Under the pieces are notes generated by a model, which ran no database searches, was not told the DNA's origin, and worked only from the letters and a program-made list of their open reading frames with translations. From NCBI GenBank assembly GCA_964016885.1, contig OZ024752.1:30132001-30196000 (forward strand): a stretch of DNA of 64,000 nt, in the 5' to 3' direction. Position numbers and translations under genes: made by a program. The DNA is from Eledone cirrhosa (lineage: Eukaryota). Position 1 is the stretch's first letter. Each line of letters opens with the position of its first letter. Positions 43,015 to 43,188 of this stretch are shown here, piece after piece.

Positions 43015-43188
43015 GTTTCTGAATTTGTTTAGCAAGATTCTTATCTGAAATCGTTGTGGAACCAACCAACCAACCAGAAATTTATAAATTTGTAATTTAT
43101 GAATATATAAGAAATTAAATTGAAGTGAAAGCAACTGGTGCGTGTGTTTCTTATTGGCAACATGACCCCTCCCAAAGTATAACAATAT
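43015..43188 (+). mobile_element. 174-bp mini-insertion of the 57771-63178 PLE family: inverted tail + terminal pLTR segment
   Basis: 43015-43054 is the reverse complement of 63136-63176; 43055-43188 matches 62990-63123. Confidence 0.9.

Follow-up and report, generated by a model that had tools for sequence, protein, structure and literature searches.

The window analysed here is a 64,000-nt stretch of the Eledone cirrhosa genome, and at 43015-43188 it carries an insert of 174 nt composed of two pieces, neighbours in a Penelope-like element (PLE) but not overlapping, placed head to head within a TA repeat. Both pieces have counterparts in a large young element of the parent family located downstream (57771-63179), and the term tail refers to the 56 nt at 63124-63179 of that element. 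The insert and its flanks comprise:

42896..43011, no strand: left (TA)n-type array adjoining the insert, the presumed target
43012..43014, minus strand: the three outermost insert bases, 1 of 3 matching the tail end at 63177-63179
43015..43054, minus strand: inverted tail piece, the distal part of the tail (equal to 63136-63176 minus one base), encoding early ORF residues
43053..43054, no strand: GT microhomology at the head-to-head junction, 2 nt common to both pieces
43053..43188, plus strand: body piece, the last 135 nt of the pseudo-LTR (62989-63123), terminating in AACAATAT
43189..44216, no strand: right (TA)n-type array adjoining the insert, the presumed target

A base-level map identified the 40 nt at 43015-43054 as the reverse complement of 63136-63176, with a single base missing from the T run, and matched the body piece (136 nt, or 134 nt without the GT) to 62989-63123. 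In BLASTN searches within the window, the inverted tail piece was recovered with an E value of 2.6e-16; the body piece matched the long arm of the large element with 5e-57 and its short arm with 1.5e-63. Together these confirm the earlier note, which had described the last 40 nt of the tail as inverted and joined through GT to 134 nt ending as at 57771. Its estimate that about 12 nt of tail are missing between the pieces is also correct, as tail bases 63124-63135 (12 nt) are present in neither. It had placed the tail at 63124-63178; a tail is present there, but it ends at 63179.

The exact homology at the junction is the 2-nt GT, and no TA is found between the two pieces. AACAATAT, with which the tail-less arms at 57771 and 33455 also end, forms the right end of the insert, which is uncertain by a few bases because AACAATAT merges into (TA)n. 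The left end is close to, and not identical with, the tail end. No target-site duplication could be read around the insert within (TA)n, matches between the two sides being (TA)n only, up to 13 nt. The body piece begins 28 nt downstream of the predicted hammerhead cut described below and includes the ORF ATG (43162), but is frameshifted.

Compared with the young element, the insert differs at 6 of 135 body positions (long arm) plus 3 tail positions, a divergence of about 5% that makes it the most diverged member of its group in the window. Since this is far more than the 3/1716 differences between the arms of the young element, the insert is a separate, sister copy that is not derived from that element, and probably one that is older or belongs to another subfamily. 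It lacks both the hammerhead and a sense-strand tail and is a dead end. A motif scan detected the flipped-tail junction once in the 64-kb window.

The parent family and a related family are represented in the window by the following features:

57771..61411, minus strand: tail-less arm of the large element, a young family member, holding a 5'-truncated ORF
58271-61411, minus strand: the 5'-truncated ORF (1046 codons), with RT, Cx4Cx2C linker, GIY-YIG with CCHH, and Asn-rich block
61408..63179, plus strand: tail-bearing inverted arm of the same insertion, tail at 63124-63179
62921..62965, plus strand: minimal hammerhead-like motif in the pseudo-LTR, predicted cut after 62960, a motif that the insert lacks
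63099..63179, plus strand: ORF start, ATG at 63099, with the proximal outer end at +25 and the distal outer end at +81
33455..34110, no strand: perfect palindrome of a related family, centre 33759/33760, AACAATAT end, only one arm bearing a tail (about 45 nt)

The two arms of the large element differ at 0.2% of positions, and each includes RNA-derived sequence unique to it (about 1.9 kb vs 56 nt). Its predicted product assigns the parent family to the EN+ PLEs, with a single ORF for RT and, at the C terminus, a GIY-YIG bearing CCHH. The RT match is weak (RVT_1, E 3e-4, below the cut-off), with YVDD at 671. A Pfam search of this ORF gave no GIY-YIG match; endonuclease motifs were read from the sequence at 943-964, where the cores flank two Cys and a His lies downstream, and one homologue carries PF01541. 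Relatives of the protein numbered 244 among 5347 candidates, the best being an Octopus vulgaris protein with 68% identity. A Cx4Cx2C linker at 920 precedes the endonuclease and fits the CX2-5CxxC linker that marks the Neptune and Nematis clades (PMC8557442), and because of this linker type the family is predicted to be Neptune or Nematis; the short linker suggests Nematis.

The pseudo-LTR carries a predicted minimal hammerhead ribozyme. The motif at 62921-62965, also read from the sequence, has the core, a 5-bp stem I and a 6-bp stem II and fits the minimal hammerhead descriptor (PMC4209133). Stem II shows two compensatory pairs relative to the copy at 33813-33840, the core of which has decayed; in the palindrome at 33455-34110 the hammerhead core has a G-to-A change. 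An Rfam search returned no hammerhead match, and only a chance match to sRNA71 (E 0.75). The junction of the large element (61366-61411) shows ten consecutive T and a tandemly duplicated 15-nt stretch, possibly a templated insertion, and Asn makes up 27% of a 230-residue block in the frame downstream, as seen also in Adineta Penelopes. An older frameshifted relative of the ORF is located at 66-738 (69% DNA identity).

The tail encodes the start of the ORF. From 63107 through the tail, one of three frames is open in both the element and its relative, and between these two, 5 of 9 changed codons are synonymous and 6 of 9 changes fall at third positions. The tail peptide scores at least 30 against 3 of 30 full-length homologue N-termini, compared with 0.3% of control windows, though the mean scores are barely apart (17.6 for homologue N-termini and 16.3 for controls). 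In Adineta and Drosophila Penelopes the tail likewise equals the ORF start (PMC3846280; PMC2377424). With the tail being coding sequence from the ORF start, the insert has its two outer ends inside a transcript, at approximately +25 and +81 of the ORF, and these likely correspond to two internal RT starts like those shown in vitro for Poseidon (PMC11167929).

Poseidon, from Anolis carolinensis, was studied by Frangieh et al. in 2024, who found in vitro that both strands of an AT-rich target are cut and extended. RT began at two neighbouring internal sites within the ORF start, one at each boundary of the tail, and the later steps were left unvalidated (PMC11167929). The origin of the inverted arms and one-sided tails of PLEs is still debated. 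Craig et al. attribute the tail to endonuclease resolution (PMC8557442), and Arkhipova et al. proposed fold-back self-priming (PMC3846280). A flipped-tail insert requires that both starts were used, on opposite strands, at one locus.

Among the insertions of the parent group in the window, all three have one proximal and one distal outer end, with the tail that equals the ORF start on one side only. The related palindrome at 33455-34110 has no spacer, and its arms are 98.7% identical. Three short palindromes beside or inside TA arrays probably belong to other PLE families: 30723-31206 (centre gap 7 nt, one-sided extension about 180 nt), 38734-39205 (37 nt, about 55 nt) and 54895-55360 (2 nt, about 92 nt). 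Their extensions, putative tails, are likewise on one side only. If the two starts were independent and equal, the chance of such pairing, calculated by hand, would be 0.5^3 = 0.125 for the parent group or 0.5^6 = 0.016 for all six, suggesting that the starts are used in a coupled rather than an independent fashion. The arms overlap in 2 of 3 family insertions and in 5 of 6 tail-type insertions, a tally that omits an RTE palindrome (36591-38302), an inverted piece (44212-44296) and weak old palindromes (5278-5538 and 25446-25652). Centre gaps are 0-37 nt (0, 2, 7 and 37 nt) in 4 of the 5 other tail-type palindromes listed.

Long overlapping arms had been taken by the earlier note to need two templates or a tandem or circular RNA. 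The demand for two templates goes too far, because the palindrome gaps of 0, 2, 7 and 37 nt are expected from fold-back self-priming and because L1 twin priming also produces overlaps, if short ones. An RT without RNase H, an activity that PLE RTs are not known to have, could also copy one RNA again by displacement. The second part stands for another reason: the large element would need a tandem or circular RNA because ORF sequence must lie upstream of a pseudo-LTR plus ORF start.

The most plausible origin of the insert, though one we would not yet call probable, is twin priming on one RNA at the time of insertion. The GIY-YIG of the element would nick both strands of the (TA)n target. One target 3' end would prime RT at the distal start (the tail end, about ORF +81) and the second would prime it at the proximal start (about +25), at which an AUAU in the RNA could pair with the TA target. 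The distal cDNA would halt approximately 12 nt short of the proximal start and the proximal cDNA after 135 nt, and the two cDNA 3' ends would be joined via microhomology and filled in. All of these steps we infer, whereas the anatomy, the family and the identity of the tail with the ORF start are demonstrated.

The layout agrees with this reading, as the earlier note had proposed. Viewed on the minus strand, the insert begins with an internal piece in inverted orientation and ends with the most 3' piece in sense, which is the arrangement of L1 twin priming; its opposite-orientation pieces do not overlap, share 2 nt of microhomology and are separated by a 12-nt gap. In L1 inverted insertions, a junction gap was reported in 1120 of 1703 cases (median 14.5 bp) and a short overlap in 283 of 1703 (median 22 bp) (bioRxiv 10.1101/2024.08.27.596794), and the 12-nt gap is consistent with the former. 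Both outer ends lie inside an RNA, which is also the case in Poseidon, with cutting of both strands and extension from two adjacent starts (PMC11167929), although those data come from another PLE clade than the family of the insert. Taken together, the proximal/distal pairing, the one-sided extensions and the 12-nt gap favour twin priming on one RNA. Against it stand the single copy and the overlapping arms of most other insertions of this type; moreover, a longer imperfect homology at the junction comes only third among 12 sites within 300 nt, and shuffling does not make the RNA fold around the tail less stable (z +0.78).

Three more specific proposals were considered. Annealing of the 12 lost bases to the body over 11-13 nt was dropped: at -5.7 kcal/mol it ranks third among the 12 sites within 300 nt and 19th among 148 along the entire arm. 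An RNA helix (63078-63085/63131-63138) that might have halted the tail cDNA is a weak lead; its pairing probability is 0.5-0.98 in four folds, it is absent in a fifth, it is kept in 1 of 2 folds of the relative, and the overall z is +0.78. An end of the body piece at the hammerhead cut was rejected, as the piece starts 28 nt downstream.

A collapse after insertion is rather unlikely but is the best of the alternatives. The starting point would be a bigger palindrome with overlapping arms, similar to the ones at 33455 and 57771. An asymmetric deletion, caused by breakage at the centre or by slippage across the hairpin during replication, would then have taken away the entire paired part of the tail arm and 12 nt of tail. 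Most tail-type insertions in the window (5 of 6) are palindromic, and the insert appears older than the palindromes, at about 5% from the young element compared with 0.2% and 1.3% between palindrome arms, so that it has had time for a later deletion; however, divergence from a sister copy may reflect subfamily rather than age. Asymmetric deletion of head-to-head junctions is described as common in animals, where it mostly stabilises them (PMC8701086), and many Penelope copies are described as disabled by microhomology-mediated deletions (PMC3846280). Any deletion that fully abolished the symmetry would also have to end within the tail. Nevertheless, at least 147 nt would need to be lost from one arm, with an end point no more than 12 nt from the stem base, the exact homology is 2 nt only, and the extended homology is unexceptional.

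Double priming on two RNA copies, with cDNAs that truncate independently, is unlikely. Here the subunits of a dimer would each have their own RNA, or use units of a tandem transcript, and the tail-primed cDNA would have stopped after about 41 nt. The Poseidon protein is a predicted dimer (PMC11167929), and the arm-unique sequence of the large element shows that long overlapping copies are feasible. Under a rough model of random truncation, a crude one based on five tail-arm lengths that include putative tails of other families, 9-16% of events would give a tail arm no longer than 55 nt, and at least one case among six then has about even odds (by hand). Short products also seem to arise without a partner and not to be rare, as suggested by a solo piece in a TA array at 41621-41674, of which 41632-41671 (40 nt) is 87.5% identical, in inverted orientation, to the distal extension end of the 54895 palindrome; this may be a tail-only insertion without a body. 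However, two RNAs do not by themselves explain the constant pairing of proximal and distal ends (3/3, or 6/6 with the other families), and in vitro both strands used identical starts (PMC11167929).

A small non-autonomous family, with a master that had the flipped tail already, is very improbable as the source of the insert. Nothing speaks for this directly, though non-autonomous PLE derivatives exist (PMC8557442). A motif scan found one copy in 64 kb, copying would need to halt exactly at the tail end, and the insert has no sense-strand ORF start beyond the pseudo-LTR, while the Poseidon protein needs the first 172 nt of the ORF in its RNA (PMC11167929). An assembly artefact in this TA-rich region can be practically dismissed: a 200-N gap (42255-42454) lies 560 nt from the insert and the junction is known from the assembled sequence alone, but substitutions as well as indels separate both pieces from the young element, both outer ends are at or within 3 nt of the biological ends of the family, and TA is absent between the pieces.

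The insert had been rated as the most informative for the mechanism. This is not supported, as random truncation (9-16%) or later deletion of a palindrome gives an identical product; a lone copy is no proof of a single RNA, and one old copy settles nothing on mechanism. If one RNA is used, as in the favoured twin priming, the end points of tail arms should cluster just before the proximal start, and these can be counted in assembled genomes rich in PLEs.

In a broader model, PLEs would insert by programmed twin priming, in which one RNP with two RTs on one RNA copies onto each target strand from a fixed start of its own. The stretch between the two starts would be the tail, flipped-tail inserts would be collisions, and long overlapping arms would form when the rear enzyme displaces the first cDNA and recopies the same RNA. 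If true, the model accounts for tail, one-sidedness and inverted repeats by one mechanism; at present it is possible but doubtful.

Several features are shared with the EN+ PLEs that have an inverted 5'-truncated copy and a one-sided tail (PMC8557442; PMC3846280; PMC2377424): RT with a C-terminal GIY-YIG, a pseudo-LTR with a minimal hammerhead, a tail equal to the ORF start at one end only, inverted head-to-head arrangement, a (TA)n target and no readable target-site duplication. The insert differs from them in that only the tail is inverted and nothing overlaps, and the tail is 56 nt rather than the usual 30-40 nt. Poseidon is alike in its two adjacent internal RT starts bounding the tail and in nicking and extension of both strands at AT-rich DNA, but belongs to another clade and has no Zn-finger linker. 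Its starts lack homology to the target, whereas an ATAT at the proximal end here could pair with (TA)n. We found no joined, inverted products described in that paper, though its supplementary map of genomic ends may show flipped tails (PMC11167929).

Twin priming of LINE-1 (PMC2912911; bioRxiv 10.1101/2024.08.27.596794) is alike in non-overlapping inverted pieces, short microhomology and a gap of about 12-15 nt, and also in possible target homology at the internal priming site. Unlike LINE-1, the insert has no poly(A) and no APE endonuclease, and both priming sites are fixed positions in the family, whereas LINE-1 uses the poly(A) end and a chance internal site. Most sister insertions here overlap by hundreds of bases, unlike those of LINE-1 (bioRxiv 10.1101/2024.08.27.596794).

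Inverted 5' copies of PLEs and a tail at either end have already been published (PMC8557442). A literature search, from which most subscription papers including the main PLE reviews were out of scope, found no tail-only non-overlapping inversion and no application of twin priming to PLEs. The insert is thus a PLE insertion of an ordinary class with a layout not found described, useful as a testable prediction and not evidence by itself. The tail motif had one match in metagenome contigs, a chance match in unrelated sequence. Searches for related loci gave none from 2 candidate stretches in viral contigs and none from 15 candidates in prokaryote genomes.

Other repeats were observed in the window. 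Short islands in TA arrays at 42750-42895 and 56337-56511 are unrelated but alike at their ends (GCCGACA, then AATAT), and may be truncated copies of another family. A partial-tandem PLE at 44217-49664 has a direct repeat of 1778 nt (99.8%), a frameshift near 48000, and the Hydra-clade motifs RWK, DKT and CxCx5C without CCHH. Its 5' end carries an inverted piece of 3' UTR (64 + 22 nt) with a 29-nt deletion, the start of which is not at the end of the element. A second Hydra-like PLE frame, 5'-truncated, follows a TA array at 51637-53685. The LINE at 34268-38309 predicts an APE endonuclease, RT and a PHD finger (931-aa frame), and its final 768 nt recur inverted at 99.9% around a TA array, as either a tail-to-tail fold-back or an assembly chimera. 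Tandem arrays are found at 28245-30000 (59-nt units, about 95% identity) and, in TA-rich form, at 20521-23250 (units of about 32-34 nt).
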